A stretch of 64,000 bases of DNA from a virus (lineage: Duplodnaviria > Caudoviricetes). Below the pieces are notes generated by a model. The model was not told the origin of the DNA. It saw nothing but the letters and a program-made list of their open reading frames with translations, and searched no databases. This document shows, one piece after another, positions 2,226-44,681 of this stretch. Positions within the stretch are counted from its first letter, which is position 1, and every line of letters starts with the position of its first letter. A program made the translations under genes and the position numbers. The stretch lies in the IMG/VR virus record IMGVR_UViG_3300010347_003561, positions 1 through 64,000 of that record. One strand, given 5' to 3'.

Positions 2226-5200
2226 TCACTTATAAACGGTCATGTTGCTGCCGCGCGGCGCAAACGACATACTGACATGGCCGTTGCCGAGCCTAGACAG
2301 TTCGGCGAAAATGGAGAGCGTGTTTGACATATCCATGCCGGAGGAGTACATCGAATTGGCGGCCTGTAAATTGGCCAGCGAGATTTTCGCGTTCCTTATA
2401 TCGTCGTAATAGATATCAAACTTGGATATATCCTCGAAACGGTTGTAGATATCCAGCGCCCTAACGGCGTTTATATCCACGTAAGGAGACATGAGTTCTT
2501 CGCGCCTGTCCCACTCTTCTCTGTTGGCCTGTACGTATTCTCTGTACCTATCTGAAGGAATAACTTTTTTCGCCGATTCGGGGAGTCGTGTCCCGCTTTC
2601 TATTGCAGATATCGTCTTCTCTTTGAGCGTCCACATATGCTGGAGTACGCTCTCGAAGCCCGGCGAAACCATTCTGGCTATCTCTTCTCTGTCTCCCTCC
2701 GGAGCGTTGGTGAAGAATTCGAGGAAACGCTTTTCCGTTTGTGGCAACGCGGTTTTTGCCCTAGACACGCTGCCGATGTTTTCAAGCCCGTAAACCGTTA
2801 CGGCCGATTCTCCGAGAGTGTCTTCTCTCTTCTGCCTCAAATAGTCGTACATCGTTTCCAGTTCCCAACGTTCCCTCGTTTCGGCCGGTATCCACGGAGA
2901 TCCGTCTAGCCGCGAGATCTTTTCGGCGGTCGAAATGGCAAGGCCTGTTGCCCCGAGGAAGGCGCCCGCGAGGACTTGCGTTCCGATGTTGGAGCCGCTC
3001 AACGCGCCGAGCATTACGCCCCTTGCGAGGCCTGCGAATGGATTGCCTGCGGCCGTGTTGAAGGCTATCGGCTTGAGGAAGTCCTCTATCGGCTTCTGCC
3101 AGAGCGCGCGTTCCTTGCCGTAAGTCTCGTACCTGGAATAATACTCGGAAGCCGAATACTGGCCGGCGAACTTCTCGAAGAAGAAAGTGTTTATATGCGA
3201 GATCCTTTCCCACAACTGTCTCGCTGGATTTGTGCCGTAAACGGCGCGTTTCCCGAAGTCGTCAGACGTGTCTGCGACCAGGTCGTTATCGCGAATCATT
3301 TTCGGAGTCTCCGGTATTATTGCGCGTTTGTAAACGGACTCGGGCGATTCGTAGTGGTAGCGCAGACCCTTGTCTTTCGGAACGAGCAATTCGACCTCGC
3401 GGCCAGAATACGATTCGAGTATCTCGGCAGCTTTTTCCGTCTTCGCCCTCGCTATGGAATAGGCCGTGTCTATATCGACGCCCTCCGATTCATATATCCT
3501 CTTGGCCGCGATGTCCACGTCTGTCTCAAAACCATAAACCTTGATGGGCATAGTGCTCTTGCCGCCGGGCAGCACCGTCTCGAACATGCCTTCGCCGATG
3601 TAGCGGCCGAGAGAAACCTTCTCGCGGGCCATAGGCATCGAATAGGGATATTCGCTGAGGTCGTACCGCTCGTTGAGCATATCCACTCCTTCGAGTGCGG
3701 AAGCGACTTTGTAGCGCACTTCGTTCGGCAAGACGTCGCGAGCCATGAGCTTTTTCACGGCCGCCTTCTTCATGGTGTACTCCCTCGAATACGGCGCGAC
3801 ATTTGCAAGAACAAGGAACTGGTCGATCAGACCATAGTTATCGACGAGTTCGTGGGTTGCTTCATAGCCGGAACCGGGCAGTCGTATTTCGCCCATCGGG
3901 ATCTTTGAATAGATATCGCCCTCCTGGAAATTCATGAAGTAGTCCTCTCCGGGTAGCCACGGATACTTTTCCTTTACGTACTCGTTGTCTATCTCGTTGA
4001 CGTACTGATTTCCCCACAGCGAGTAATTCTTTATGACTATTCTTCTTATGTATTCGGTGAAGCCCGCCATGCCACCGAGTTCCATGTTGTAGAACTGGCG
4101 TTCTCGACCGAAGCCTACGTCGGAGGTCGCTACCTTGGCTTTCAACTGCTCTTCCTCTTGCGAACCGGCAGGCGTTATCGTGCCGGCCATGAACCCTATC
4201 ATACCTGCGTAGTTTTTCAACCAGTCGGTGAAATTGCGCAGACGTTCTTTAAGCTCGTTTTCGGATTTAGGCAGCGCGTATTCCGACGAATAGATATCGT
4301 ACGCCGGTTTGGCTATCTTCGACTTGTATTTGCTTTCCATCTCCTGCGCGAAGGCCCTCAATTGGATAACCATGTTTTTGTATTCGCCGGCTATTTCTTC
4401 GAGCGACGCCCTTACCGCCTTCGAATTCGCGGCCATCGCGTTGACAATCCTGCGGTAGTCTTCGGTGTGCATCTCGACTGGCGGCTTTATGAACATGTCT
4501 ATAGGCGCGAGCAACTTCCCTGCGATCGGGATCTCGGAAAGCGGGCCGGAACCGGTTACAGGGAAGGGCCTGTCGTGGTAATGTTTCCTTTCGAGCCAGT
4601 AAGGATCGGCAAGCTTGTTGAAGCCGAAGAGATTGAGCGGCGTAGGGAGCCACGACGCATGCTGGAAGTATTCGAGCTTCGAGCCGTACAGAATGTCTGT
4701 GTACTGCCAGCCGGAAGTCGCGGTGTGTATCAGCGAAGGCCGCCAGTACGATATCTTCGAACCCCAAACTGGCTGACGTCCGAAAGTCCAGTACCTCGAT
4801 TTCCTGACTTCTACTTCCTTCTCGCCGGAGACTTCGCGTTCGAGCTGGGCAGTAGGCCTGAGATCATGTTCGGCCACGGCAGCCACTTCTGCTGCTATCA
4901 TCGCTGCCATCGGGGAGCGTGTGAGAAGCATGGTGCCTCCGAAGGCGAGCGAGGCAGATGCACCTGGCGCTTTTTCCCTGAAATGTCTTGCCGCCCCGAC
5001 TATCCCGAGGCTTTCCGCGACCGTGTTTGCGCCTATAGCGATGGTTTTAACTGCTTCGGCGCCTATCTTCGAAGCGTCGCCGCCGGTTGCCGTGTCGAGC
5101 AAAAAGCCTCCGAATTTCAACGCCTCTATGCCCATCCATATAGGGAGTATCCTCGTCGTGAAGACTCTGCTTATGGATTGAAGGGCGTTTCTCGTCTTTT

Positions 5201-8123
5201 CGGGATTCGGCCTGCCTATGCCGAGATCTTCAAGGAGCGATATCGGCCTGTCGGCTATGTAGTGGAGTATCGTAGATGGTATCGACGGTACCTGATTCTC
5301 TTCGTTCGGGAATATCCTGCGCAGCGGAGATATGGAGCCGTGGACTCCCGGCTCGGCTTCTCTGAAGAAGAGCGAAGTATTGGCACTGGCTATGTTGTCA
5401 AGCTTCGATTTTGAGCGCATGGCGCGAGAGGTTATCCTGAACCAGTCGCCTGTGAAGGACCTCGGCACGAGCGTTTCGTACGAAGAACTCACTAGCTGTT
5501 CGTAGTCGCGCGTTACGAGTTCTCTGAGCACATCGGGTATCATGTCCTCTATCTCTATGTTCTTCTGAGAGTAGAGCTGGCGGCCGATCAACAGGTTCAT
5601 AGCGTCGGCGGCTTCCTCGTAATTCTTACGCCAGACGAAATCGACGAAAGCGTTAGACGCTATTATAGCCTCCGATTTCTTCTTCGCCAGTATCACAACG
5701 CCCTGCAACTGTTCGAAGTCCTCTGCGTCGAGAGAGAGGCCGGTCTCCTTCACGAACTGGCGTATGAGAAAATCGTTGTCTTTCGTTCCCGAGCGGAGTG
5801 CGATATCGGTGAATTTGCTGACGAGGGCGGAATTGAGCATTATGTCTTCCGTCGTTTCGCCGTACCTGGTTATCACTCTCTTGAAGATATCGGCGTAGAG
5901 GCCGACGTTTGCGCTGTTTATGAACTGGTTTTCGAACTCGTCTTTGATATGTCTCTCAAACTCGGTCGGGCCTATCCCGCGTAACATTGCGAGCAAGGCG
6001 CGGGCTGTTGCGTCGTGTTCGACGTCGATCTGTGCTTTTTCGAACGAACCGCTTATGCGGCCGAAAGTTTTCGCGTCGGTCTTGACTCCCCTGATGAACG
6101 TTTCGAACCACTCTTCCAGGCCTACAGATTCCTTGTATTTCCTCGCTATCTTTCTGAGGCCCGGCGAAGATTCGGAAAACTTCACGAGGTCTATAACGAA
6201 GCCGAGATCGTAAGCCGACTGTTCCAGATCGGAGCCCTGAACGACTCTCTTAGCCGGTCCCTTCTTAATGCGTTCCAGTTTATCCCTTATAGCGGAACCG
6301 CTGCCGGCCGAAACATCGTCTTCTACGCCGAGGCGTTCGAAGATATCTTTGAGCGCCGTGTTGTGCGTCATGACCTTGGCGGCGCGGCCGAGCCTTTCGA
6401 AGTAAGTCTCCTCGAAGTTGGCGATGTTGTTGAACGGTAGGTCCAGCCTTTTGAGTACACTGGTACGCTCAGGAAGCCTCAACATTCCGGCCTGCATCAT
6501 GTAGATCTTCGACATTCTGCTGCCTATGAAGGATTTTCCGTAGGCACGGCCTTCGCCGATCGTGTCGGTTATATCTATGTACACGGCCGGCAGCTTCTTC
6601 TTCGTCTTAATGTATTCGATCATCGGGGTGAAATCGACTTCGAGCACGGACCTGTTGCCGATCATTATCATGTTAGCGTCGCCGATTATATCGCCAACCT
6701 GGAAAGCGGACGGTATTCTTATGCCCTTGCTGGCGAAGTAATCCTCGGCCAGTTCGAGTACGCTCTTGGGTCCTTCTTTCGTCGGGATATAGTGCTTCTT
6801 CCTGAAGACGGTGGCCGAGCGTTCATACATGGCTTCGTGAACGAAACGCGGATTGAACAGCGCGATCGGATTGAATCCGATCACTGGAATCTTCGTGTTC
6901 TCGGCGAGCCAGAGCGCAGCGTCGGCAGCACGTTCGCCGAACGATCTTATAACCTTCGGTTTCCCGCCGACCTCGAAGACGCTTCGGCCTATCGGCATCT
7001 TCTCGAGGATGGAGGAATCGATCCCGCGCTTTTCCAAAAGTTCGGTGAGCTCTTCGAAGTGCTGGGCGCCGGCCCTGACTTTGCCCTTGCTCGCGTCTAT
7101 GATGTTCAGATAATCGCCGACAGTTACACTTTTGAGTTCGAGGATAGACTTTATGCCTCTCTCGTTGCCGGCCTCTTCTGAGATCTTCATGAACTCTTCG
7201 AAGATGTTCTTTTCGATTGCCTCGGATATCCTGTTTTCCGTCGAGTTCACGTGCCGCAAAACGTTTTCCAGTTCGTAAAGCCTGCGTATGTTGTACGAGT
7301 AGAAGCCGAGACGTTCGCCCTTTATTCCTTCCGACTTCGCCTTTATCTTGGCGATAACGGCCTTCCGGCCACCGGAGAAGATATCGAATATGTCTTTCCA
7401 GCTTCGCTCCTTCACCGCGTCGTTTATGTAATTGACAGTTCCGGTTATTCTATCGACGAAATCGTCTGCGAAGGATATAGCCGAGATCGCTTTCTCTCTC
7501 AACGCGTTGTTTTTCATTACGGCCTTGGCTACGCCTTTTATATTCAAAGCCGACGAAATCGCAGAGAAAGGCAAGGCCGTGGTGGCGAGGTATTCTCCGT
7601 ACGATTGTTCCTTCGCCCTTTCACCGCCGACGGCCTTGTAAACAAGATAAGAAGCGGGGTTTGACATGACCATTGCGTTTCTTAAAAAAGCGCTTATCGC
7701 GTTGCTTCTCGATTCGTCGGTCAATTCGTCGAACCGTTTTATTATCTCACCGGCACCGGTGTTCCTGAGTGCGGCGGTTAGCATGCCGCTAACGCTGACG
7801 TCGGCGAATCCTTCTATCGACTTGGTGAATATGCTCGTGTGTTTCAGGTTGTGTCTTACTGTGTTGAGAACTGTAGGATTCAGTTCCTTCTCGAGGGTGT
7901 CTATGTCGAAGAATTTCTGGAGAGACGGGAGTTTCCTGAGAGCCGAGGCTCCGATTATGTAGTCGAGTCGTTTGAACAGGCCGGTTGCCTGACCGCCCAA
8001 GAGAAGAGTTGCAGCTCCGGCCGTTACCCAGCCGAGCGGTGAAGTCTTTCTCTTTTCAACTCTTTCGCGTGCTTTTTTCGTGTCGCTCTGAAGGTCGTAT
8101 TCGTCAAACACGCGCTCGGGCAT
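2226..8123 (-). CDS. Tape-measure-like / large internal virion protein (1965 aa)
   Basis: Very long ORF directly downstream of the tube and chaperone genes; helical Ala/Gly-rich stretches and hydrophobic segments. Confidence 0.65.
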   Translation of the reverse strand: MPERVFDEYDLQSDTKKARERVEKRKTSPLGWVTAGAATLLLGGQATGLFKRLDYIIGASALRKLPSLQKFFDIDTLEKELNPTVLNTVRHNLKHTSIFTKSIEGFADVSVSGMLTAALRNTGAGEIIKRFDELTDESRSNAISAFLRNAMVMSNPASYLVYKAVGGERAKEQSYGEYLATTALPFSAISSALNIKGVAKAVMKNNALREKAISAISFADDFVDRITGTVNYINDAVKERSWKDIFDIFSGGRKAVIAKIKAKSEGIKGERLGFYSYNIRRLYELENVLRHVNSTENRISEAIEKNIFEEFMKISEEAGNERGIKSILELKSVTVGDYLNIIDASKGKVRAGAQHFEELTELLEKRGIDSSILEKMPIGRSVFEVGGKPKVIRSFGERAADAALWLAENTKIPVIGFNPIALFNPRFVHEAMYERSATVFRKKHYIPTKEGPKSVLELAEDYFASKGIRIPSAFQVGDIIGDANMIMIGNRSVLEVDFTPMIEYIKTKKKLPAVYIDITDTIGEGRAYGKSFIGSRMSKIYMMQAGMLRLPERTSVLKRLDLPFNNIANFEETYFERLGRAAKVMTHNTALKDIFERLGVEDDVSAGSGSAIRDKLERIKKGPAKRVVQGSDLEQSAYDLGFVIDLVKFSESSPGLRKIARKYKESVGLEEWFETFIRGVKTDAKTFGRISGSFEKAQIDVEHDATARALLAMLRGIGPTEFERHIKDEFENQFINSANVGLYADIFKRVITRYGETTEDIMLNSALVSKFTDIALRSGTKDNDFLIRQFVKETGLSLDAEDFEQLQGVVILAKKKSEAIIASNAFVDFVWRKNYEEAADAMNLLIGRQLYSQKNIEIEDMIPDVLRELVTRDYEQLVSSSYETLVPRSFTGDWFRITSRAMRSKSKLDNIASANTSLFFREAEPGVHGSISPLRRIFPNEENQVPSIPSTILHYIADRPISLLEDLGIGRPNPEKTRNALQSISRVFTTRILPIWMGIEALKFGGFLLDTATGGDASKIGAEAVKTIAIGANTVAESLGIVGAARHFREKAPGASASLAFGGTMLLTRSPMAAMIAAEVAAVAEHDLRPTAQLEREVSGEKEVEVRKSRYWTFGRQPVWGSKISYWRPSLIHTATSGWQYTDILYGSKLEYFQHASWLPTPLNLFGFNKLADPYWLERKHYHDRPFPVTGSGPLSEIPIAGKLLAPIDMFIKPPVEMHTEDYRRIVNAMAANSKAVRASLEEIAGEYKNMVIQLRAFAQEMESKYKSKIAKPAYDIYSSEYALPKSENELKERLRNFTDWLKNYAGMIGFMAGTITPAGSQEEEQLKAKVATSDVGFGRERQFYNMELGGMAGFTEYIRRIVIKNYSLWGNQYVNEIDNEYVKEKYPWLPGEDYFMNFQEGDIYSKIPMGEIRLPGSGYEATHELVDNYGLIDQFLVLANVAPYSREYTMKKAAVKKLMARDVLPNEVRYKVASALEGVDMLNERYDLSEYPYSMPMAREKVSLGRYIGEGMFETVLPGGKSTMPIKVYGFETDVDIAAKRIYESEGVDIDTAYSIARAKTEKAAEILESYSGREVELLVPKDKGLRYHYESPESVYKRAIIPETPKMIRDNDLVADTSDDFGKRAVYGTNPARQLWERISHINTFFFEKFAGQYSASEYYSRYETYGKERALWQKPIEDFLKPIAFNTAAGNPFAGLARGVMLGALSGSNIGTQVLAGAFLGATGLAISTAEKISRLDGSPWIPAETRERWELETMYDYLRQKREDTLGESAVTVYGLENIGSVSRAKTALPQTEKRFLEFFTNAPEGDREEIARMVSPGFESVLQHMWTLKEKTISAIESGTRLPESAKKVIPSDRYREYVQANREEWDRREELMSPYVDINAVRALDIYNRFEDISKFDIYYDDIRNAKISLANLQAANSMYSSGMDMSNTLSIFAELSRLGNGHVSMSFAPRGSNMTVYK

Positions 8124-16005: not shown

Positions 16006-17280
16006 TTATGGATTTGGAATGAGCGTCGGGAACTTCTCGTAAGACTTCTTGAGAGTTATGCCCTTTATGAGGGACATACCATCGCCTTTGTAGGCTGGAG
16101 CGACTGCGTATCTCTCGATTATCTTGGTCTTGCGGATATCCCTGTACTTGTCGTCGTAATCACTGGTGGTCGGAAGCTGGTTTACGACGAGAAGACCGAG
16201 CGCAGCGCTGTCGGCGATAATGAGGTCAACTGTATTTTCTGTCGGATTGAAAGGAGCGAACGGAGAGAGCACGACGTTGAAGTCAACACCGAACAGCGAC
16301 GGGAAATTTATTCCGGCGATCTGTCTTCCGGCGGTCGGGTACTGGAATTCTCCGAGGTAAGGATCTATTGTGTTCTTGAATGTGACTCCGGCTTTGTTGT
16401 ACCAGCTTCCCATTCTGCCCTGGGTGAAAAGGAACAGGCCTCTGAGAGTCGGGTTGGTAAGGAACACCGGGTAGGAGAGCGGGTGCACGATTATGGTGTT
16501 CGGGCTGAAGCCCTTGGTTATGAGCTTGGAGGCTGCCACGATTATGTCGTCGAACGTGAGTCCGCCGTTGGCGGTTCCGCTGGCGTCAACGCCGCTGGTG
16601 TGCATCGTCGGTTCTTCGCTGTCGTTGTCGAGCGCAACTTTAGCGTTCTGGAAGAGCATTTCGGAGACCTGTACTTCCTTCCATCTCGCCAGAGCCTTGA
16701 GCGATTCGTTTATCATGTGATTCCAGACCGGGAACTCGTTGTACATCAGGGTCTCTTCTGTAACTTCCACGGCGATACCGTGCTTGCCGATTTCGATTTC
16801 CTGATACGAGCCGGTTGTCATCTTGAAGGCTCTAGGCTCCGCGCCTTCGCCCATCGAAAGGTTTCCGCCGAATCCGGACAGGAAGGGCCACTTCATTCTG
16901 AGGCCGGTGAAGGTCATCTTCTGGAGCATGTTGGTGAGTACGAGGTTAGGTTCGATAGCCTCGACGAATCTCTTGGTGACGACTTTCGGGAAGAACTCCG
17001 CGAACTCCTCCGAGGTTATGAGGTCCTTGAGCATTCTTCTTTCGACCGATGTTTTTGCATACGTCGCGGCAACGGGGTCGATGTATCCGTCGCACGAGAG
17101 AATCATATCGAGAGCTGCGGAGCCCCTGTCTCTCTCTATGGCTTTCTTGATAGCCTCTGGTGCGAAGAGCGCGTAGTCCCTCGCGACGACGTTGCTCTGT
17201 ATCTTCTGGTCTATGGTCTTTTCGATCCTGGCCATCAGATCTTCTATCGTAGGATTGGCTGTCATTGTTTCAGTGAGCAT
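16006..17280 (-). CDS. Major capsid protein (HK97 fold)
   Basis: MGEGAEP, IGKHGIAVEVTEE, PNTIIVHP, IIERY motifs; strong RBS; followed by a terminator. Confidence 0.85.
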   Translation of the reverse strand: MLTETMTANPTIEDLMARIEKTIDQKIQSNVVARDYALFAPEAIKKAIERDRGSAALDMILSCDGYIDPVAATYAKTSVERRMLKDLITSEEFAEFFPKVVTKRFVEAIEPNLVLTNMLQKMTFTGLRMKWPFLSGFGGNLSMGEGAEPRAFKMTTGSYQEIEIGKHGIAVEVTEETLMYNEFPVWNHMINESLKALARWKEVQVSEMLFQNAKVALDNDSEEPTMHTSGVDASGTANGGLTFDDIIVAASKLITKGFSPNTIIVHPLSYPVFLTNPTLRGLFLFTQGRMGSWYNKAGVTFKNTIDPYLGEFQYPTAGRQIAGINFPSLFGVDFNVVLSPFAPFNPTENTVDLIIADSAALGLLVVNQLPTTSDYDDKYRDIRKTKIIERYAVAPAYKGDGMSLIKGITLKKSYEKFPTLIPNP

Positions 17281-17306
17281 GTTAGTTTATCCTCCTTGTT
17301 TACTTA

Positions 17307-18104
17307 CTAGATGTTGAGCTGAATTACAGCGGCCTTCTTGGTTACAGGGTCCATGCCGTCGAGAACTCCGCCGTTTTCCATGCCTGGCAGTCCGAGTCCA
17401 GGAACGGTTATGACCTTCTCATATCCGCCGGTCCACGTCGGATCAGCTTCGAGGTCGATAACCTTGACGACTCTTCCGACGACCTGTTCGAGCGCGGCCG
17501 AGATGTTTGCTATGATGGCAGCAGCGGCTGGCTGCACGTCTTCGATAGCATCACTTATCGAGCTGACTGCGAGCGGAACGTACCAGCCTGTGGAGTCCGG
17601 AACTATGAGCGTACCCGGCAGATATTCGCTGGAATCGTAATCTCCGGAGAGTGCCACGAGAATCATCCAGTCGGCCAGGATCGTGACCTCAAGGTCCATC
17701 TGGTAAGAAGGATCGGCCTGCATGTCCCACACGTGGTAATCTCTGAACACGACACCGAGCGGTTTGTTGCCTCTGAGGCCGGGAACTGCTTCGGCGGGCG
17801 CGGCCACTCTAGCGTCGGTCTTTTTGTTGGTGAAGGTCGTTATGTCGTAAACTCCTTCGGCAACGTCGAGCACAGTATAGTTGAAAACGGAATCGACTCC
17901 GCCGTTGGCAGGCACCACGTAACCGAACTGATCGAGCGAGACTATCGTGCCGGCTTCGAGGACTATACCTCTCTTCATTTCGGTATCGTATTTGACAACA
18001 GGAAGATAAGGGGCTGGCCTGAGCTTGAGTCCGGAGGCTATCCTTACACCTTCTGTGTATTCCGCGAATTTCTTGACACTTCCTTTTCTAGTTATGAGTG
18101 GCAT
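17307..18104 (-). CDS. Capsid decoration / minor head protein
   Basis: Between protease and capsid gene; GTIVSLD..GYVVPANGG; strong RBS. Confidence 0.55.
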   Translation of the reverse strand: MPLITRKGSVKKFAEYTEGVRIASGLKLRPAPYLPVVKYDTEMKRGIVLEAGTIVSLDQFGYVVPANGGVDSVFNYTVLDVAEGVYDITTFTNKKTDARVAAPAEAVPGLRGNKPLGVVFRDYHVWDMQADPSYQMDLEVTILADWMILVALSGDYDSSEYLPGTLIVPDSTGWYVPLAVSSISDAIEDVQPAAAAIIANISAALEQVVGRVVKVIDLEADPTWTGGYEKVITVPGLGLPGMENGGVLDGMDPVTKKAAVIQLNI

Positions 18105-18119
18105 TGATAATTACCCTCC

Positions 18120-19442
18120 TTATTTGCCTTTGTTAACCTTCAGAGCATCGTTGACCATTTCTGTGATTGTGGGGATTTGCGGTTTTACGTCTCCGTCTTT
18201 GATCAGCGTTTCGGAACTTTTAATCGTCTTGGCTTCGGGGTTGACGGCAGGCGGGTTGGTCGGATCGGCTGGCGCTGCAGTATCCGCCGCAGGGGCCGGA
18301 GGCGGCGTCTGCGCATCTTCCGTCTTGTCGGTCGGCTTGTCGTCTTCGACCGGCGCCGGCTTTACCTTGGAGTCCTCGACTTTCTTGAGCTGTTCGGAGA
18401 TTTCCGAATACATTTCGTTGAGTTCTTCGAGGCTCTTGGAAGAAAGCTTGTCTATGATCTTGTTTTTCTCGTCATCGGTAAGGTTCTGGTACGAAGACAG
18501 ACCGAGCTGAGTCTTTCCATCTACAACCTTAACCGCGACTTCTCTTCTCTTCACGTTCAGCCTGTCGGTTTCGATCGATTCGAGTTTTTCAATTCTGGTA
18601 TTGAAAGCGCCGAGCTTTTCGTCGAGGTTCTTGACAATCGCATCTAACGAGGCGAGTCTGTCGGCAAGTTCTTTTTCCATCTGTTTTTCCTCCCCAATTT
18701 CTTTGCTTATTGAATCGGTGCCTTCAGAAGAAGAAATAACTACACTACTGTCTTTATCAGGTACTTTTCCTACGAAGAAGGCGAATTCGTCGGCCGGTAG
18801 AGTTGCGAAACTCAGTTCCTTGTAATGGAAGCCTTTTGGTATATCGACGCATTTCTTCCCGTCGTAAACCTTTCCGACGCGGTGCGGGCAGGCGTCGTAA
18901 TCGGTGAGGTCTTTGCCGCAGATGCTGCAGGTGTGTCTGTCCGGGAACATGCCCACCGAGACGGTGTTGAAAGCACCGTTCCTGACCTTCTCGTACATAT
19001 CCTGGTCGGTCAGTTCCACTTTCAGCAAAACTGCTCCGGTGGCATTTTCTGGCCACGGTATTTTTTCGTTTCCGACCATGTCCTTAATAACTCCGAGTTC
19101 GCCGGAGGTGAAGTAAATGGCTTCGAGGACCTTTCCAACCGGATCGCTCCAGTCGTTGTGGTGTTTGAGTACCGGCTTCTGGTAAGGATAAATCCACGTA
19201 TCTATCGCTGCCGTTATCTCCGATTGAATGTAGATCCTGTTGTTTATCTCCACGTCGGAATGTGTGGCGATCACCCAAAACTTGTTGCCGGAAGTGACGA
19301 GTGCGTCTTCGATAACCGAATCGTCGGCAAAGGCGATGATCGGCATCGTCTGTTTTATGATTTCGCTGTTCCTGTTCTCGACGTGACCTTTCATTATTCC
19401 GTCTATGAAACCGCTGTTTTTTATGAATCTATCGAATTTCAT
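18120..19442 (-). CDS. Prohead protease with C-terminal scaffold
   Basis: KPVLKHH...PVG, TVSVG, CSICG...CPH..GK.YDG, ELSF...PAD; coiled-coil and Pro-rich tail. Confidence 0.8.
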   Translation of the reverse strand: MKFDRFIKNSGFIDGIMKGHVENRNSEIIKQTMPIIAFADDSVIEDALVTSGNKFWVIATHSDVEINNRIYIQSEITAAIDTWIYPYQKPVLKHHNDWSDPVGKVLEAIYFTSGELGVIKDMVGNEKIPWPENATGAVLLKVELTDQDMYEKVRNGAFNTVSVGMFPDRHTCSICGKDLTDYDACPHRVGKVYDGKKCVDIPKGFHYKELSFATLPADEFAFFVGKVPDKDSSVVISSSEGTDSISKEIGEEKQMEKELADRLASLDAIVKNLDEKLGAFNTRIEKLESIETDRLNVKRREVAVKVVDGKTQLGLSSYQNLTDDEKNKIIDKLSSKSLEELNEMYSEISEQLKKVEDSKVKPAPVEDDKPTDKTEDAQTPPPAPAADTAAPADPTNPPAVNPEAKTIKSSETLIKDGDVKPQIPTITEMVNDALKVNKGK

Positions 19443-29278: not shown

Positions 29279-29771
29279 CTTCGCCCTCGAAAAGGCCGGT
29301 CTGTGAAGCCTGCATCTTTATTATCTGCCTGGAGTATTCCGAAAACCTGTCGAGCGACTTGACGGTGGCGAGCGGCACCTCGCGCTCGGTCATGTACTTG
29401 GCGTTCTTGAGATCGACCGGGAACCATTTTCGACTCTCCCTGTCACGCTTGGGCAACCTGACGACGTAGCGCGTACCGTAGTTGTTCGATTCTATCGGCG
29501 CCAAGAAGCCCCAATCTACAAGAGCACGCACGTTCTTCTCGACCGTCGATTTTCGCAGTTTCGTAACTTCCGCCATTCCGCGAAAGGAAAGATGGCCAGT
29601 CGTCTTCTTCCCGAAGGCTATCGAGTCCCTGTACATAACCAGATATACCCTCGTGATCGACGGTGGACGCACCTCTGTCAGAAAATCGAGAACGGTGTTC
29701 GGAATCTGAACGAACCCATAACCCGGCCTTGCAATCTTTATCATTCCATTCACTCCCTTATACATGGACAC
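29250..29771 (-). CDS. Winged-HTH protein resembling phage replication-initiator N-termini
   Basis: FVQIPNTVLD...VYLVMYR...LSFRGMAEVTKLRKSTVEKNVRALVDWGFL. Confidence 0.6.
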   Translation of the reverse strand: MSMYKGVNGMIKIARPGYGFVQIPNTVLDFLTEVRPPSITRVYLVMYRDSIAFGKKTTGHLSFRGMAEVTKLRKSTVEKNVRALVDWGFLAPIESNNYGTRYVVRLPKRDRESRKWFPVDLKNAKYMTEREVPLATVKSLDRFSEYSRQIIKMQASQTGLFEGEDGESDTENS

Positions 29772-29899
29772 CAGTCCTATTTGTGAACCCCCACCGCCAA
29801 AATTATATCAACTCCGGACACTTAGTTGAAATCAAAAACGCAGCGAACGATAACTGACGAGGGAAGTGAGTTTGGTTTGCCAACTGCCTCGAATATCTA

Positions 29900-30067
29900 T
29901 CACAAGTGTCCATGTATGTTACCAGAAGAATCGCCGGGAACGTGTTCCGGCCCCTGGCGAATTAAATAACCGCCGCAAATTGGACATTTTCGAAGTTTCT
30001 GTTCCGGCGTTTTCTCCAGAAACGGGTATTCCAACCCGCACGTTCTACATACGTAAACAAACAGCAT
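29900..30067 (-). CDS. Small zinc-ribbon (FmdB-like) protein
   Basis: AGGAGG RBS then MLFVYVCRTCG...KCPICGG; this is the real part of track ORF 29900-30502. Confidence 0.7.
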   Translation of the reverse strand: MLFVYVCRTCGLEYPFLEKTPEQKLRKCPICGGYLIRQGPEHVPGDSSGNIHGHL

Positions 30068-30082
30068 ATTCCCTCCTAATAC

Positions 30083-30091
30083 AGGAATAAC
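30083..30091 (-). promoter_or_regulatory. Putative late promoter GTTATTCCT heading the morphogenesis arm
   Basis: 9-nt core of the 12-mer, a few nt before the AGGAGG RBS. Confidence 0.5.
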
Positions 30092-30123
30092 TTGCCGGCG
30101 TTTTTTCGGCGGTTTCGAATCTA

Positions 30124-30171
30124 TGCAGAAAAGGCATCTGTGCAGAAAAGACATCTGTGCAGAAAAGGTAT
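30124..30171. repeat. 17-bp tandem repeat TGCAGAAAAGRCATCTG (two full copies and one partial)
   Basis: Copies at 30124-30140, 30141-30157 and 30158-30171, at the strand-switch point. Confidence 0.9.
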
Positions 30172-30259
30172 AGGGGGGTGTATAAGTTGGCCCGGTACAA
30201 ATGGGTAGTGAGATTTTAGCCCCACCGGTTCCCGGGACACATAGAAAGGAGGCATGTGT

Positions 30260-33200
30260 ATGCTCGATCTTCTGATCCTTTTTGTCTTCGTCGTGTGCTT
30301 CGCGTTCAACTTCGTCGTGGTTGCACGCAAACTGTCCGTCGTGCACAAGCACGCTCAGCTTGAAGGGGGTGTAAGCATGGTAGCTACGATTCTTCTGCTC
30401 CTCGTTGGGTTGTTCTGTCCCCTGTCCTACGAGGGGTTCGCGCCGAAGTTCTGCGATCCACGCACGCCTGCACGTGGTGTGTGGCATCGTATCAGAGTCC
30501 ATCGCCGCAAGGTCCGCATGGCGGCGTACAAAGCGTACCGAAAGGTACTGCGGAGGTATGCGTTAAAGCGTGCCGTCAAGTTCGCAGTAGTATTGTCCGC
30601 AATCCTCGCCGCCTCATACGCCATAGGTATGCTGGCCATCGGCGGAGTATCCGTCGCCGTTCTCTTCTTCAACAAGAAGAAGATAGCCGAGAGCATGCAG
30701 GCGGAGTCGGAGACTGACCCTGTACTGGATTACGAGGAGCAAGTGAACGCCTGCCGAGGGGTAAAGAACAGGGCTCCGTTGACGGTCGGCATGTACAACA
30801 ACATCGTCGGCATGCTGATAGAACTGTCGGAAAAGGGCGGGCCTGCGGGTCGAGATCTCATACGCCGTTTCTGCCTTCTTAGAGATAAGGACGGCAACGA
30901 GGCGCTTGACAAATCGTCAAACGCTCAGACGCTCATAGAAATAGTTCAGGGGCTGGCGGAGATAATCAAGCCCAAGGACCCGCTAGGAAGAAACCTGAAC
31001 GGTGCAGATTCATGGGCGAAGCATCTCGCGTCAATCCGAGACTTCAACGATGATGGTCGCTTTACCGAAGACGAACTCAAGACCATCGAAGAAGTTGCTG
31101 CGGCGCTGAAACAGATGCGGTCGTTCGGATGCTCGGCGGAACTAGCAGACGACCAGCATAAGGGTGGAAGGTTGCGCTCTATTGCGCACATACTCTCGGT
31201 TGTGCAGAGGCTAAGGAGCGGCGCTGATCTACTGCCCGAGAGTGACACGCGCCAATCCTCCGACGCTGTCAAGTCCTGGGCGGCTGACAAAAAGTCCGCT
31301 GCGTCCAATGATCAGTCGGTCGGAGAGGTCAACAACGCCGTAAGAAACATCGTTAACAACTTCGCCGTTAAAGGGTTCGGCCCGGCGTTCGACAAACCAG
31401 ACCTGTCGAAGGGTGAAATCGGGTTCGACATTAACGAAATAGTCGATCCTACCGAAGCCCAGGAATTTGGCGCGGTGGACGATGAAGTGCTGGACCAGCC
31501 GTCCGCATACAGTACCTTTAACTACAAGTATGCGGTGTTGCCCATCACGACGGAAACCAACGGAAGAAAGAAAATCGTGGCGGCAATAATCCCCGCCGAC
31601 ATAGCCAGAAAACTCGCATTCGATCCGAAGGCTATGGAGGCTAAACTGGCGGACAAGGCAGGTCGTTTCGCCGATCTGGTGAAGGACGAGCTACTAACCG
31701 CCATAGAACCAGAGGATCTTAACATTTCCACCGAAAAGATCCTCGGGAAGTGCAGAGAAAGGCAGGCCAAGCTCTACACACAAAAGGGTGAAGGCGATCC
31801 GAAAGTAATTCGGATATTCAGCTTCGACGCCCTTGAAGGGCTTAACCTGTCGTCAACCAACAGCCCTCTGAAGACTTATGTCTTCAAGCACGAGGGCTAC
31901 CAATTCCACAAGGTCTCGATGCTCCTCAACCCATTCGTCTATGATACACAGGCGAAGAGGGTAATCGGGACGGCATTAAGAAAGTCAGTCATACTCGCCT
32001 TCACGGCTCTCAACAACATCGTTGTTAAGCCGTTGAGGATAGTGATAGATGGAGTCGAAGCCGACGAGATCCACGAGGGTATGCTTACCGCAGTTACAGC
32101 CTTCGTGGATAAAGACTGCGATATGTCGAGAATCCACCCGCATGCTTCACTCGTCGGGGACGGATTCTTGATAGCGAAGGCGCTCAAAGCCGGCATGAAG
32201 TATATGTTCGGCGGCGAGTGGAGATCCATTCCGAAGGGAGCAAAGCTCCAGAGTATAGCCAAAGACAAGGGAGTCGTCGTTGGCTACTTCGGAAAAATCC
32301 TTGCGGTTCTACCCGACGGTCGCGAGTTCGTCGTAGAGGCGATCGAGAACACGCAGGGTAAGCGAAAGAACAAAAGTGCCGTAATCGGCGGAGCCATGAT
32401 GAGACTCGATTCGTCGATCAACGGCACTTCCCACGTCATAGATCCCCGAAACCGCGGCACGGCGAAGCGGTTCTATGACGCCAACGTGGATTGTCTCACG
32501 GCCAAGTTGTTCCTATTCAACGACGACGGAAGCCGTGAAGAGATCGGTCAGGCCCTGCTTGGCCTGCAGAAGTTCTTTGTTGACCTCTCTCAGGATTATA
32601 GCCCGAGAGTAGATAGAGTGTCAACGAATTACTACCAGGCCAACCAGTTAGCTTGGATATTCAAGGCCTTCTTCTTCCTTTCGGAAACGCTCTTCCCGAG
32701 GAAGGCCGAATACGTCGAAGCCGGCAACAGGGCAGCTCACAACGTAAGAGAGTTGTTAAGGCTCTTCCTCGCAATAAAGTACGCAATGGACGACGTGCTT
32801 AAAGTAAAGCGGTCGGACAAGTACATCAAAGAGAGGAAAGAGAAGCTGGCATTCGCTGGTAGCATCGAGCTGGACGAACGCGAAATGATCGGCGTCGTAA
32901 AGCAATGCTCGGTCGTCAACAAGAAGACCGGCGAGACAATGGACATTATGAAGTTCCCCGTGGCAGTTCGCTACTGCCTGTCAAAAGGAATGGTAGATCT
33001 CGCGAGAGTCTTCGCCAACCTCGGAGAGGAAGCCCTCATGACCGCTAACGGTCTGAGCATAGCTTCTCCAAAGGGTTTTGCGGCGGTGAAAAAACTCGCG
33101 ACGCAGCCGATCGTACTAGCGATCCCGGGGTATTCGAGAAAGAGCATAACGCTCATGCTGAATTCCTGGGGTCGCGTGGAAACACACGAAGATAAGAAAG

Positions 33201-35284
33201 TGTGGGTCTATTCACGCGAAGTGAAGGACCTCAAGAGGCTGGTCGAATCACTTGCCTCCTTCGAGTACGGTTGGATCACCGACGATACGCACGTCGGTTT
33301 CTCCAAGATCTACCGTTTCAAGAGGGCCGCGGCGTTGCAGCTCGAGGCTGCCAGGGCGTTGTACAGATACACCAGGGCTGCCGGAATAGCCGCGAACGCT
33401 CCCAGATTCGACGGCTGGGCGGGACGCTTCGCAACCACAAGAGCCGACGGCTGCGTCCTGCCATACAATGCGTTCCTGAAAGGGCTCCGCAAAGAGTCCA
33501 TAAGGAAGCAGATGAACCTTGACGAAGACGACATCAAGTCCATCAACTTCTTCGTCAAGAACAACAAAAGCAAGCGGGTCGCGGCCGACAAGATCCTTGC
33601 GTACCTTAAGAAACACGGCAAGGACAGCGTCGTGCTCGTCAGGCACCCGCTTCTTGGATATATCCCCGGCCTCGAGTCGAAAGTGGTAATCTCCGGCCTC
33701 ACGGCCGAGGACGTCATCTACGTCAACGAGAAGATAGCGACACAGCTCGGTGGCGACGACGACGGGGATATAATCTACGTCATCCCCCTCGCGGTCGAGC
33801 ATTACATGAACGGTGGGAAACCGCCTGTTCATAAGAAGACCGTCGAGGAAATATCGGGGACCGAACACATCGCCGACGCAACGATCGACGTCAAGTTTGG
33901 CGGTCAGATCGAAGCGTTCGAGGGCAATGCTCAAGCAAGCGAGCCAGTCCCTCCGACGATGGTCGAGGAACCCGAAGAAGAGGAGCAGGCAGCCGAAACA
34001 CCGAAGGCTGCCGTTGCTCCTGAACCAGCAAAACCGGTTACGCCTGTGAAGGCAACACCGGAACAACCAGTGAAAGAAAAAGCGGTCGAGACGTCCGCGA
34101 CGGAACAGGAGAAGCCAGCGACGGCGTCGGTCCCTTCTGCGAACAACGTCCTCGAGAAGATCTTCGCCGAGATTAAGAGAATGGCTGGCGAGATTGAGGA
34201 GCTCAGGAGAGATAACGAACTCTTGAGAGCCAAGCTCGCTGCGACCACGGCGGCGAAGGTCGAGCCGAAGGTTGAAGCTCCGAAAGCGGAGGCGCCGAAG
34301 GCAGAACCGAAGGTAGAGGCTCCGAACAAGCCTATCATCTACGAGAAGGATATATTCCAGAGCAAGGCAGAGGCTCTCGTGAATCCTGTCAACCTCGTGG
34401 GCGTGATGGGTGCAGGGCTTGCCGCCAAGTTCCGCGCGAAGTATCCCGATATGTACGACGATTATCGGGGCAGATACCTCGCAGGAAGGCTGACGGAAGC
34501 CTACGCCTATAAAGCCGAAGACGGGAAGACGATAGTGAACTTCCCGACGAAGAAGAACTGGAAGGAGAAGTCCGACATCGACCTGATAAAGAAGAGTTTT
34601 CGCTGGTTGCTCGACAACTACAAGGCTCTCAACATCGGGTCGGTCTGCTTCCCGAAGGTCGGCTGCGGGCTAGGTGGCCTCGACTGGTCTGTCGTGAAGC
34701 CGTACATCGAAAAGTTCGCCTCTCTGGTGAACATACAGGTGTACGTAGTCGAGGACGAGAGCAAGCCTGAGAAGGTGAAAGGCGACAGAGACAAGGTCGT
34801 TGCCTTCACGGGCCATCGCCCCGACCGCATCGGCGGGTACGACGAGAACAACCCGAAGGCCCGCGACGTCAAGGCGAGACTTAGAAAGGCCGTGGATTAC
34901 TGTATAGCACACGGCAAGAAAGTCTTCGTCGTTGGCGGCGCGATCGGAGTCGATATGTGGGCCGGCGAGTTAATAGCCGAGTTAAAGAAAGCCGACCCGT
35001 CTATCAGGCTCGTGATCGCCGAGCCTTTCGCTGGCCACGACGCGAAGTGGAAGGACGAGCATAAGGTAAGATATGCCGCCCTGAAATCGGTCGCGGACAA
35101 AGTCGTCGTAGTCCACAGCGGCGGATACGATGCGTGGAAAATGAACAAGCGCAACGAGTATATGATCGACCGCGCTTCCACGCTTGTAGCCGTGTTCGAC
35201 GGGGATAAGTACGGTGGCACGTACAACGCCCTGTCGTATGCCCGTAAACGCGGCGGCGTAAACATACTGACTATCAAGTGCTAG
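30260..35284 (+). CDS. Single-chain two-barrel RNA polymerase-like protein with N-terminal hydrophobic segments and C-terminal macro and YspA/SLOG domains
   Basis: beta-like GAKLQSIAKDKGV and LPDG; beta'-like RHPLL and QLGGDDDGDIIYV; macro ALVNPVNLVGVMGAGLA...FPKVGCGLGGLDW; SLOG VAFTGHRP...GGAIGVD...RNEYMID...GGT. AGGAGG RBS. Confidence 0.8.
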   Translation: MLDLLILFVFVVCFAFNFVVVARKLSVVHKHAQLEGGVSMVATILLLLVGLFCPLSYEGFAPKFCDPRTPARGVWHRIRVHRRKVRMAAYKAYRKVLRRYALKRAVKFAVVLSAILAASYAIGMLAIGGVSVAVLFFNKKKIAESMQAESETDPVLDYEEQVNACRGVKNRAPLTVGMYNNIVGMLIELSEKGGPAGRDLIRRFCLLRDKDGNEALDKSSNAQTLIEIVQGLAEIIKPKDPLGRNLNGADSWAKHLASIRDFNDDGRFTEDELKTIEEVAAALKQMRSFGCSAELADDQHKGGRLRSIAHILSVVQRLRSGADLLPESDTRQSSDAVKSWAADKKSAASNDQSVGEVNNAVRNIVNNFAVKGFGPAFDKPDLSKGEIGFDINEIVDPTEAQEFGAVDDEVLDQPSAYSTFNYKYAVLPITTETNGRKKIVAAIIPADIARKLAFDPKAMEAKLADKAGRFADLVKDELLTAIEPEDLNISTEKILGKCRERQAKLYTQKGEGDPKVIRIFSFDALEGLNLSSTNSPLKTYVFKHEGYQFHKVSMLLNPFVYDTQAKRVIGTALRKSVILAFTALNNIVVKPLRIVIDGVEADEIHEGMLTAVTAFVDKDCDMSRIHPHASLVGDGFLIAKALKAGMKYMFGGEWRSIPKGAKLQSIAKDKGVVVGYFGKILAVLPDGREFVVEAIENTQGKRKNKSAVIGGAMMRLDSSINGTSHVIDPRNRGTAKRFYDANVDCLTAKLFLFNDDGSREEIGQALLGLQKFFVDLSQDYSPRVDRVSTNYYQANQLAWIFKAFFFLSETLFPRKAEYVEAGNRAAHNVRELLRLFLAIKYAMDDVLKVKRSDKYIKERKEKLAFAGSIELDEREMIGVVKQCSVVNKKTGETMDIMKFPVAVRYCLSKGMVDLARVFANLGEEALMTANGLSIASPKGFAAVKKLATQPIVLAIPGYSRKSITLMLNSWGRVETHEDKKVWVYSREVKDLKRLVESLASFEYGWITDDTHVGFSKIYRFKRAAALQLEAARALYRYTRAAGIAANAPRFDGWAGRFATTRADGCVLPYNAFLKGLRKESIRKQMNLDEDDIKSINFFVKNNKSKRVAADKILAYLKKHGKDSVVLVRHPLLGYIPGLESKVVISGLTAEDVIYVNEKIATQLGGDDDGDIIYVIPLAVEHYMNGGKPPVHKKTVEEISGTEHIADATIDVKFGGQIEAFEGNAQASEPVPPTMVEEPEEEEQAAETPKAAVAPEPAKPVTPVKATPEQPVKEKAVETSATEQEKPATASVPSANNVLEKIFAEIKRMAGEIEELRRDNELLRAKLAATTAAKVEPKVEAPKAEAPKAEPKVEAPNKPIIYEKDIFQSKAEALVNPVNLVGVMGAGLAAKFRAKYPDMYDDYRGRYLAGRLTEAYAYKAEDGKTIVNFPTKKNWKEKSDIDLIKKSFRWLLDNYKALNIGSVCFPKVGCGLGGLDWSVVKPYIEKFASLVNIQVYVVEDESKPEKVKGDRDKVVAFTGHRPDRIGGYDENNPKARDVKARLRKAVDYCIAHGKKVFVVGGAIGVDMWAGELIAELKKADPSIRLVIAEPFAGHDAKWKDEHKVRYAALKSVADKVVVVHSGGYDAWKMNKRNEYMIDRASTLVAVFDGDKYGGTYNALSYARKRGGVNILTIKC

Positions 35285-43011: not shown

Positions 43012-43896
43012 GTGGAGGAAAAAATGTCAATTATCGATCACGAGAGCTTCATAGACATTGGTTATGAAAGAACCTGCGAATGTAAACCGACGAATATAAA
43101 TTGCTTGGAAGCTAAAGAATGGCTTAAATGTCAGCTGGGAGTATGGCAAGTCTCATATGAAGGACGGGATATAAGGGACAAAGAAGTTCACCCTGCGACG
43201 TTTCCAATACAATTGGCTAAAAAAGTAATTTCGTTGTTCACTCACAGAGGCGAATTGGTGGTAGATCCTTTCGCAGGGAGCGGCACAACGCTCGTTGCGG
43301 CACAGGACTTGGACAGAAATGCCGTAGGATTCGATCTCCAGGAGAAGTACGTTCAGTTATCTAATCAACGGGTACAAACAACTACCCTATTCTCGTCAGC
43401 AAAGCAGATCGCAATAGCAGACGATGCCAGGAACATTCCCAAATATTTCAGACCGGATTCAGTAAGCTTAATATGGACGTCTCCGCCTTACGCGAATTTG
43501 CTTAATCGAAAGCGCAAGAATAAATCTCGACGCGAACGAGATAATGGTCAACTAGAAAAAGTGGAACAGTATTCGCAAGACTCCAGAGATCTAGGCACAA
43601 TGCCGATCGAAGAATACACAAAACATATCGGAGATATCTTCGAAAACCTTTTGACTATCTTGAAACCAAAAGGTCATTGCGTGATTAACGTACCGGATAT
43701 GTGGTGGGAGAACGAGCGAATAACAATACATATCAACGTTGTAGAAGAATTGCGAAAGAGAGGTTATGAACTGAGAAACATAATCATCTGGGACAGAACC
43801 AACGTCGTCAATAGAATAGGAATCTTCGGCTGGCCTTCTAACTACATCACTATGGGTGTAACGTTCGAATATCTTCTCGATTTCTGGAAACCTTAA
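43012..43896 (+). CDS. DNA amino-methyltransferase (likely m4C), cognate of the adjacent endonuclease
   Basis: HPATFP, DPFAGSGTT, TSPPY. Confidence 0.85.
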   Translation: MEEKMSIIDHESFIDIGYERTCECKPTNINCLEAKEWLKCQLGVWQVSYEGRDIRDKEVHPATFPIQLAKKVISLFTHRGELVVDPFAGSGTTLVAAQDLDRNAVGFDLQEKYVQLSNQRVQTTTLFSSAKQIAIADDARNIPKYFRPDSVSLIWTSPPYANLLNRKRKNKSRRERDNGQLEKVEQYSQDSRDLGTMPIEEYTKHIGDIFENLLTILKPKGHCVINVPDMWWENERITIHINVVEELRKRGYELRNIIIWDRTNVVNRIGIFGWPSNYITMGVTFEYLLDFWKP

Positions 43897-43913
43897 AAGA
43901 TAGGAGGGGTATA

Positions 43914-44681
43914 GTGGAAATGTACACAAAAGATTCTTTGATCGCTCGATTAAGAGAAATACGAGAATTGGGCTGGATCGAAAACAGAAGGGCAGGCAAT
44001 TCCGGCGGAGTGGGAAATACGCTCGAAGATCTTCTCGGAATCGAAGAGAACAATCTTCCGATTCCTAATGCGGCAGAATGGGAATTGAAATGCCAGCGAT
44101 CAGACACAACATCGCTATTGACGCTGTTTCACATGGAACCATCACCAAGGGCATTTAGATGGGTTCCTTCGGTCCTTCTCAAGCTTTATGGATGGCCGCA
44201 CGAAACAGAAAACGAAAACAGTTTTCGCCAGACAATTACCGGCACAGCAAGAAGCGACCGGGGTTTCCAAGTCGTAGTGGACAGGAACGAAAGAAAGATC
44301 CTTATATCATTCGACAGCAATTCGATCGCTAGTCACCACGACGATTGGAAAGCATCTGTCTTAAAACGTGCAGGTACTCTCGCAGAATTAGACCCGAAAC
44401 CGTACTGGGGTTTCGACGATGTGTTTCACAAAGCCGGTACCAAGCTTCATAACTGCTTCTACATAATCGCAGATGCGAAAACAGAAAAAGGGAAGCTTCA
44501 TTTTGCCTATAACAAAATTTTGATGCTCAAGAAATTTGATTTAGAAGGATTCCTGAATGGAATCGAAGAAGGACATATCTATGTTGACTTCGACGCAAAA
44601 ACAACCCACAACCATGGAACGAAGTTTCGAATAAGGCCTTCGGCTTTTCCGTTACTGTACGACGAAGTAGTGGAAATCTAA
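43914..44681 (+). CDS. MvaI/BcnI-family restriction endonuclease
   Basis: GGVGNTLEDLLGIEENN...ELK...LTLF..EP...HNHGTKFRI signature. Confidence 0.85.
   Translation: MEMYTKDSLIARLREIRELGWIENRRAGNSGGVGNTLEDLLGIEENNLPIPNAAEWELKCQRSDTTSLLTLFHMEPSPRAFRWVPSVLLKLYGWPHETENENSFRQTITGTARSDRGFQVVVDRNERKILISFDSNSIASHHDDWKASVLKRAGTLAELDPKPYWGFDDVFHKAGTKLHNCFYIIADAKTEKGKLHFAYNKILMLKKFDLEGFLNGIEEGHIYVDFDAKTTHNHGTKFRIRPSAFPLLYDEVVEI

Follow-up and report, generated by a model that had tools for sequence, protein, structure and literature searches.

Does a tailed phage (Duplodnaviria; Caudoviricetes) known only from an IMG/VR virus record transcribe part of its genome with an RNA polymerase (RNAP) of its own, of a kind that the protein family libraries do not recognise? 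The question is raised by a plus-strand gene, P0001, at 30254..35284 of the 64,000-nucleotide stretch analysed here (the window), which is the first 64 kb of the 99.9-kb record IMGVR_UViG_3300010347_003561, itself ~65% complete. The gene encodes 1676 amino acids (aa), of which only the C-terminal end is known to Pfam, as a Macro domain followed by a SLOG domain of the YpsA type. Our analysis indicates that aa ~500-1185 of this protein are probably a single-chain two-barrel polymerase of the beta/beta-prime type, likely devoted to DNA-templated RNA synthesis for part of the phage's transcription. The motifs that suggest this, their conservation among distant relatives and the predicted fold are set out first.

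Motifs, relatives and predicted fold of the candidate polymerase

The candidate polymerase comprises the following parts, all on the plus strand; counterparts are those in E. coli beta and beta-prime.

31760..32623, +, beta-like half (aa 503-790), predicted by model match to hold a double-psi barrel and surrounding hybrid-binding and fork-like elements
32237..32275, +, K-x7-K-G motif (aa 662-674), K664 and K672 corresponding to beta K1065 and K1073
32309-32320, +, LPDG, found on checking of the motif positions
32339..32374, +, N-x-Q-G-K-R-x-N motif (N699, Q701, R704), reading N-T-Q-G-K-R in this protein, counterpart of the beta N-P-L-G-V-P-S-R-M-N stretch
32513-32530, +, LFNDDG, inside the modelled beta-like region
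32684..33373, +, helical connector that joins the two barrels (aa 811-1040), with little sequence conservation and low model confidence
33386..33799, +, predicted beta-prime-like catalytic barrel (aa 1045-1182), colinear with beta-prime 346-470
33404..33427, +, R-x-D-x-x-x-G-R (aa 1051-1058), first strand of the catalytic barrel, counterpart of beta-prime R346-R352
33641..33655, +, R-H-P turn, R1130 lying on beta-prime R425 and P1132 on P427
33755..33769, +, catalytic D-D-D-G-D (D-x-D-G-D) loop (aa 1168-1172), D1168/D1170/D1172 lying on beta-prime D460/D462/D464

An exhaustive phmmer search with aa 150-1200 against 1.84 billion protein representatives returned 15 proteins (8 of the 15 at E <= 1e-10), all of them unnamed or hypothetical and with no relevant Pfam domain. 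In two alignments of the family (A1 and A3, 17-26% identity) K664, K672, G673, Q701, R704 and R717 are invariant and twelve further positions are at least 90% conserved. The structure models below rest on shallow alignments of 14-22 sequences. The K-x7-K-G, [R/K]-H-P and D-x-D-x-D motifs are found in 18 of the 18 fused sequences scanned, where most of the seven motifs are present and their order is constant. The position of R1130 is occupied by arginine in all relatives bar one, which has lysine, D-x-D-x-D stands 31-39 residues past [R/K]-H-P in every full-length relative, and the first strand of the catalytic barrel reads R-G-x-x-I-x-G-R in most homologs. Because they are near-invariant across 15 distant relatives, the motifs are more than chance resemblances.

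Single-chain two-barrel transcriptases are documented in phages (YonO, PMC5467207; P23-45 gp64 and gp96, PMC10770324), and the module was compared by sequence with these and with the cellular enzymes. With E. coli beta, the best local hhalign match covers 1061-1109 and pairs K664 with K1065, K672 with K1073 and N-x-Q-G-K-R-x-N with N-P-L-G-V-P-S-R-M-N; with beta-prime, the best local match (446-486) lies around the catalytic loop. Smith-Waterman alignment of aa 1040-1185 with beta-prime 326-480 gave a score of 57 (z 5.0) that was reached by 0 of 300 shuffles, and this alignment is colinear from R346-R352 to the strand past D464; for the beta segment, a local alignment scored no higher than shuffled sequences did. 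None of the hhalign comparisons with gp64, gp96, YonO, RpoB and RpoC was significant, the best local matches to gp96, RpoB and RpoC falling on homologous motifs. The A1 profile matched no PDB sequence at E <= 10, and no match to the barrel segments was found in E. coli by BLASTP. Such weak comparisons carry weight only because they are consistent with one another and with the predicted fold.

Library searches gave the following results. Within the polymerase module Pfam has no match even at E 1-5 (no Rpb2_6, Rpb1 or PF05183), and PF00562 is absent from the record. There is a weak match to phrog_4291, a PHROG named RNA-dependent RNA polymerase (E 0.008-0.027), and a match to the PF05183 Atlas cluster (score 0.78) that is a lead only. 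Searches by megablast and tblastn with the gene and with homologs P0005 and P0012 found no match in 50,697 phage records, scans of IMG/VR (by protein, alignment and back-translated motif) and of GTDB species genomes found no relatives, and, apart from one protein of 2254 aa, a homolog search by word index brought up nothing but near-identical proteins. As far as searches of this sensitivity can tell, PHROGs, Pfam, the phage records, IMG/VR and the GTDB species genomes do not contain the family.

An AlphaFold2 model of aa 481-1210 (predicted template modelling score 0.60) is confident at model residues 130-320 and 570-700; its predicted local distance difference test (pLDDT) values are mostly 74-95 in the confident barrel regions and 80-93 over most of the beta-like half. 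A Foldseek search of the PDB with this model gave 145 matches at E <= 1e-3 and, among the matches listed, all were large subunits of multisubunit RNAPs. In VIA-align, model residues 23-305 fitted second-largest subunits at Z 14-17.6 over 206-262 aligned residues; those matched were beta, Rpb2 and RPA135 (chains at Z 16-17.6, 240-260 residues) as well as the AR9, PhiKZ, African swine fever virus and vaccinia homologs. Model residues 563-720 were placed on the catalytic barrel of beta-prime/Rpb1 (Z 8-8.6), and both barrels fit in one superposition on QDE-1 (Z 8.2, 245 residues aligned), P74-26 gp62 (Z 8.0, 250) and P23-45 gp96 (Z 7.5, 211). Matches among the predicted viral structures of BFVD were dominated by viral RNAPs, and a second AlphaFold2 model (aa 150-1210) reproduces the core. 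As modelled, then, the chain holds two facing double-psi beta-barrels that would form one active site.

A preliminary description of the window had pointed to this region, and we find every motif that it named exactly where it placed them within the 30254-35284 open reading frame; the parallels that it drew with RpoB and RpoC all hold, that of LFNDDG included. It had proposed a Foldseek comparison with RpoB/RpoC and QDE-1 and had made its reading depend on two apposed barrels, and the aa 481-1210 model indeed matched RNAP large subunits and QDE-1, with both barrels in single superpositions as given above. Its central proposal, a single-chain two-barrel RNAP of a lineage outside the libraries, is thus supported by the predicted fold and by the family-wide conservation of the barrel-defining residues. 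The epithet "compact" is less apt, as the ~690-aa polymerase module is part of a 1676-aa chain.

Family layout and comparison with known two-barrel enzymes

A metagenome scan located 16 loci, from sludge and digester samples. The candidate polymerase is one gene of 720-721 aa in L006, L007, L009, L010 and L016; split loci and copies of an upstream gene lie as follows.

L013 6207-8362, L014 9478-11633, L015 10019-12208 and L018 494-2733, split polymerase loci, each with a beta-like gene and a beta-prime-like gene
L006 2588-3427, L013 5639-6226 and L015 9321-9935, upstream module gene of 195-280 aa, conserved and directly upstream of the polymerase

The split genes measure ~400-427 aa (with the beta-type motifs) and 284-319 aa (with R-H-P and D-x-D-x-D). 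The two genes of a pair overlap by 4 nt in L013, L014 and L018, and in three split loci the motifs divide cleanly over two adjacent genes. In P0004 and P0007 the upstream gene of 195-280 aa is part of the polymerase chain and forms its N-terminus, and we regard it as a third module because it is conserved between loci and fused in these two proteins. It carries L-M-G-P-V-T...W, and the best match of this motif in E. coli RpoC, which is non-significant, is the conserved N-terminal segment 106-122 (17 columns, hhalign E 0.88); that it might be a remnant of the beta-prime N-terminus is a lead only. Genes downstream of the metagenome polymerases encode an RNase H-like protein, a MoxR-type ATPase and a protein whose only match is to a PHROG named HNH endonuclease. 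In P0013 (2412 aa) and P0018 (2254 aa) the module forms the C-terminal end of a very long protein, whose other ~1500 residues have no confident family match; a sub-threshold match to DnaG_N was seen in P0013 only. The contig from which P0013 comes is 158 kb long. Finally, the relatives all end 8-15 residues past the catalytic loop, so the barrel is followed by neither bridge helix nor trigger loop. What is new here is the occurrence of fused and split forms, the conserved upstream third module and the end shortly after the catalytic loop.

The beta-like half finds its best structural match in the multisubunit enzymes (beta/Rpb2 and beta-prime/Rpb1, including the PhiKZ and AR9 non-virion enzymes; Z 14.5-17.6, 206-262 residues). 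Like beta, the family has K-x7-K-G, the N...R...N stretch that follows it and a G-x-K...D...Y-x-Q strand, and like beta-prime it is colinear from R346 to the end of the D-F-D-G-D strand. Unlike these enzymes, which have two subunits of 1100-1400 aa, it has a single chain of ~690 aa; past its catalytic barrel there is neither funnel nor bridge helix, trigger loop or jaw, clamp and zinc sites are not recognisable, and alpha, omega and sigma partners were not found. The enzymes of the Thermus phages, P23-45 gp64, P74-26 gp62 and gp96 (PMC10770324; PDB 8f5m, 8h2n), are likewise single chains in which a beta-like part precedes a beta-prime-like part; P23-45 gp64 and P74-26 gp62 are non-virion enzymes, and the N-terminal domain of gp96 is a virion RNAP fused to a tape measure protein (PMC10770324). 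With gp96, hhalign keeps R-x-P-x-x-G through D-x-D-G-D to the V-x-P strand in register, although at a probability below 8% against the Thermus enzymes. The present family has no significant sequence relation to them and they belong to different PHROG families; moreover, the Thermus enzymes run on for hundreds of residues past the catalytic loop, through a bridge helix and a partial trigger loop (PMC10770324), whereas the present family stops.

QDE-1, the eukaryotic RNA-dependent RNA polymerases (RdRPs) and SPbeta YonO are also single chains, with the same order of barrels and a D-x-D-G-D loop. YonO is minimal and has no recognisable trigger loop, yet it is a processive phage transcriptase (PMC5467207); the present family differs from it and from PF05183 in having no PF05183 match and no relevant hhalign match to YonO. 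In gp66 of the crAss-like phage phi14:2 (bioRxiv 10.1101/2020.03.07.982082), too, a two-barrel polymerase missed by sequence libraries is concealed within a large phage protein; gp66 is packaged in the virion and has a D-F-D-x-D loop, and it was not among our 50 best structural matches. Archaeal PolD DP2 is reported to have no conserved elements in common with RNAPs other than the two barrels (PMC10770324), so a two-barrel core can polymerise without the other RNAP elements. DP2 makes DNA, and the present family, unlike it, keeps the arginine that favours ribonucleotides. Chaban et al. counted 23 families of two-barrel RNAPs (PMC10770324). The kind of enzyme is known, and the family is set apart here by comparison with characterised enzymes and with the libraries searched. 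What distinguishes it from the characterised enzymes is its strongly beta-like first half, its end at the catalytic barrel, its fused, split and three-module forms and, in this phage, a predicted membrane anchor and a Macro-SLOG tail.

Flanking domains and genomic setting

Around the candidate polymerase, the chain of P0001 is made up as follows.

30254..35284, +, whole open reading frame of 1676 aa, open throughout and served by a strong Shine-Dalgarno site, AAGGAGG
30254..30676, +, N-terminal region, strongly hydrophobic in three segments by Kyte-Doolittle scan (aa 1-31, 34-64 and 106-141)
30701..31813, +, N region (aa 150-520), helical, with pLDDT < 50 in the second model
33809..34333, +, linker of low complexity (aa 1186-1360; Pro, Glu, Lys and Ala), whose length differs between close relatives
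34334..34771, +, Macro domain (aa 1361-1506), Pfam PF01661 at E 6e-12 (aa 1376-1482)
34772..35284, +, YpsA-type SLOG domain (aa 1507-1676) and stop codon, Pfam PF06908 at E 2e-27 (aa 1516-1662)

Gene callers start this gene at the ATG at 30260, which gives 1674 aa. Its full architecture is kept in all full-length members of the 90% cluster of P0001, from several contigs, and the 8 sequences of the P0001 clade, again from several contigs, are 93-100% identical outside the linker. The linker alone varies in length within the clade; between P0001 and P0003 it is 37% identical with 152 gap columns, and the other regions are 88-98% identical. The hydrophobic segments flank an Arg/Lys-rich loop and are predicted, from their composition, to be a membrane anchor; they occur in the P0001 clade only and are absent from all distant homologs scanned. 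The N region has short motifs in common with the N-termini of the P0011-P0017 group (hhalign E 0.027, 67 columns; a lead only). At the other end of the chain, the PDB sequence matches of the Macro region are macrodomain proteins (E 1e-20 to 1e-22) and that of the SLOG domain is 2nx2 (E 9e-16). Among the relatives scanned, the Macro and SLOG domains were found only in the P0001 clade, most relatives carrying neither, and the fusion of membrane anchor, Macro and SLOG is absent from all distant relatives found. SPbeta (L003) encodes YonO (16357-18876) and, separately, YoqJ (43591-44106), which is annotated as similar to YpsA; that domains of the YonO and YoqJ types are joined in one chain in P0001 may be a coincidence.

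Positions 1-29771 of the window carry, on the minus strand, virion and packaging genes (large terminase, portal, major head protein and a tail-sheath-like protein). The plus-strand arm that starts at 30254 encodes a CCA-adding enzyme, two sliding clamps, methyltransferases and a Ro60-like protein and, past the window, a RecD/Dda-type helicase, a UvsX-like recombinase, a DnaG-type primase and an anaerobic ribonucleotide reductase. The gene does head an arm, as had been said of it earlier: it is the first gene of a rightward replication and nucleotide-metabolism arm that diverges from the structural arm, and we infer that this rightward arm is early. No T7-like RNAP, sigma region 2 or Rpb2_6 domain was found in the record, nor was any other large protein with a D-x-D-x-D loop.

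Three other minus-strand reading frames were looked at. One at 1-2229, in the structural arm, runs off the window start (743 aa visible), and its aa 441-561 match a PHROG for a DNA polymerase exonuclease subunit (E 5e-9). The next, at 2226-8123, encodes a 1965-aa tail-module protein without a Pfam or PHROG match; we rejected it as a candidate for a second, tail-borne polymerase, as it has neither D-x-D-x-D nor K-x7-K-G and no family match. The third, of 55 aa at 29900-30067, has an AGGAGG ribosome-binding site of its own and runs divergently from the polymerase gene. Its product is a zinc-ribbon protein of the pattern CxxC...CxxC, and a 200-aa frame listed at 29900-30502 is probably an over-extended version of this short frame.

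The same early account had considered candidate promoters to be visible, and this did not hold up. Enumeration of intergenic 8- to 11-mers found only Shine-Dalgarno-like words above shuffles, and no sigma-70-like site was found in 29500-31000. One repeated element does lie ahead of the polymerase gene.

30119..30168, +, tandem 17-bp repeat of 2.9 copies (90% matches), in the 186-bp divergent intergenic region ~85 bp before the start codon

This array, between the zinc-ribbon and polymerase genes, is possibly an operator or regulator-binding site. In addition, the word GGGTAGTG has five copies in the record, all on the plus strand and four of them intergenic (window positions 30203, 36696, 49781 and 57860 and genome position 64678). 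Several of the copies stand in T-arm-like or Y-RNA-like contexts and one is 50 bp upstream of the polymerase start codon; we rejected the word as a promoter, since it belongs to tRNA-like or Y-RNA-like elements.

Proposed function and its alternatives

If the module is a DNA-templated RNAP, its residues suggest how it would work. K664 and K672 of the beta-like barrel would hold the RNA 3' end and the incoming nucleoside triphosphate (NTP), D1168/D1170/D1172 of the beta-prime-like barrel would bind Mg, and R1130 would select ribo- over deoxyribonucleotides. Its counterpart R425 is the main determinant of that choice, through the 2'-OH, and is conserved in two-barrel RNAPs (bioRxiv 10.1101/2020.06.30.179606). 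The intact catalytic residues suggest that the polymerase is active, and RNA synthesis on DNA would free part of the phage's transcription from the host enzyme. Because its gene is the first of the replication and nucleotide-metabolism arm, the polymerase would be made soon after entry; its N-terminal helices may then tether it to the inner membrane, where phage genes would be transcribed, with the Macro and SLOG domains carried along on a flexible tether. Any link of these C-terminal domains to transcription, such as a coupling to ADP-ribose removal, would be a further step. This assignment is favoured by the presence in the record of a DnaG-type primase, a helicase, a recombinase and clamps, and by the absence, noted above, of a T7-like RNAP, sigma region 2, an Rpb2_6 domain and any other large protein with the D-x-D-x-D loop.

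Several points weigh against it. [quoted passage not shown] The sequence-only comparisons with known RNAPs, by A1 profile and by hhalign, are each non-significant, all of the structural evidence is prediction from the shallow alignments noted above, and both the connector and the N region model poorly (aa 150-525 have no usable fold in the second model). The intergenic words include no recurring promoter-like motif. Among the open reading frames scanned no DNA polymerase gene was recognised, and since the record is only ~65% complete, other polymerases or factors could be missing from it.

The same features could belong to a polymerase that is made late, packaged and ejected with the DNA, and that inserts its N-terminus in the host membrane and transcribes the entering genome, as proposed for gp96. 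The predicted membrane segments unique to the P0001 clade would suit such a role, transmembrane segments accompany the RNAP in gp96 as well (PMC10770324), the gene adjoins the structural arm with the 186-bp divergent region in between, and it has no sigma-70-like promoter ahead of it. We nevertheless consider a virion-carried enzyme unlikely: the gene is opposite in strand to all recognised virion genes and heads the replication arm, the neighbours of the distant relatives are not tail genes but non-structural ones, among them genes for RNase H-like proteins and a MoxR-type ATPase, and the N-terminal anchor is equally consistent with ordinary co-translational insertion.

It is quite unlikely, in our judgement, that the two barrels have another task, copying RNA as QDE-1 and the eukaryotic RdRPs do or making DNA as archaeal PolD does. 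The beta-like half is far closer to subunits of DNA-dependent RNAPs (Z 16-17.6) than to QDE-1 (Z 8.2), the counterpart of R425 points to NTPs as substrates, the record has a conventional primase and, as a weak point, a PolD chain was not among the best structural matches. Such a task would nonetheless fit a barrel with no bridge helix or trigger loop past it, given that PolD is reported to share no conserved elements beyond the two barrels (PMC10770324), as well as the glycine at the beta-prime N458 position, which is reported for cellular RdRPs (bioRxiv 10.1101/2020.06.30.179606), and the weak matches to the RdRP-named PHROG and the PF05183 Atlas cluster. The phage is also rich in RNA-handling genes (the CCA-adding enzyme and the Ro60-like RNA-binding protein). 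That no DNA polymerase was recognised in the record might be counted on the same side, but its absence means little because the record is incomplete. Activity itself is deduced from sequence, the usual C-terminal catalytic helpers are missing and large parts of the protein model poorly, all of which would be compatible with a catalytically dead relic that serves the Macro and SLOG domains as a scaffold or by binding nucleic acid. Every metal- or substrate-binding residue, however, is invariant across relatives at only 17-24% identity, and the polymerase module appears to be selected for its own sake because most relatives carry no Macro or SLOG domain; we regard a relic as very improbable.

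A DNA-templated RNAP thus remains the reading that we favour. A bolder form of it, which we put forward tentatively and hold to be rather doubtful, is that these proteins are an undescribed minimal family derived from beta and beta-prime that works without bridge helix or trigger loop, that its fused, two-gene and three-module forms are a natural series of core pruning and assembly, and that in this phage the enzyme is tethered to the membrane and coupled to ADP-ribose-handling domains.

The universal transcription enzyme has its simplest relatives in the single-chain two-barrel polymerases, few of which have been studied (YonO, QDE-1, crAss gp66 and P23-45 gp64/gp96). If active, the present family would define the smallest working set of RNAP elements, and its natural fused and split versions could be used for reconstitution. 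The transcription enzymes of large uncultured phages may be invisible to Pfam and PHROGs, as this one is, and inference of the expression strategy and host dependence of such phages would be affected accordingly.

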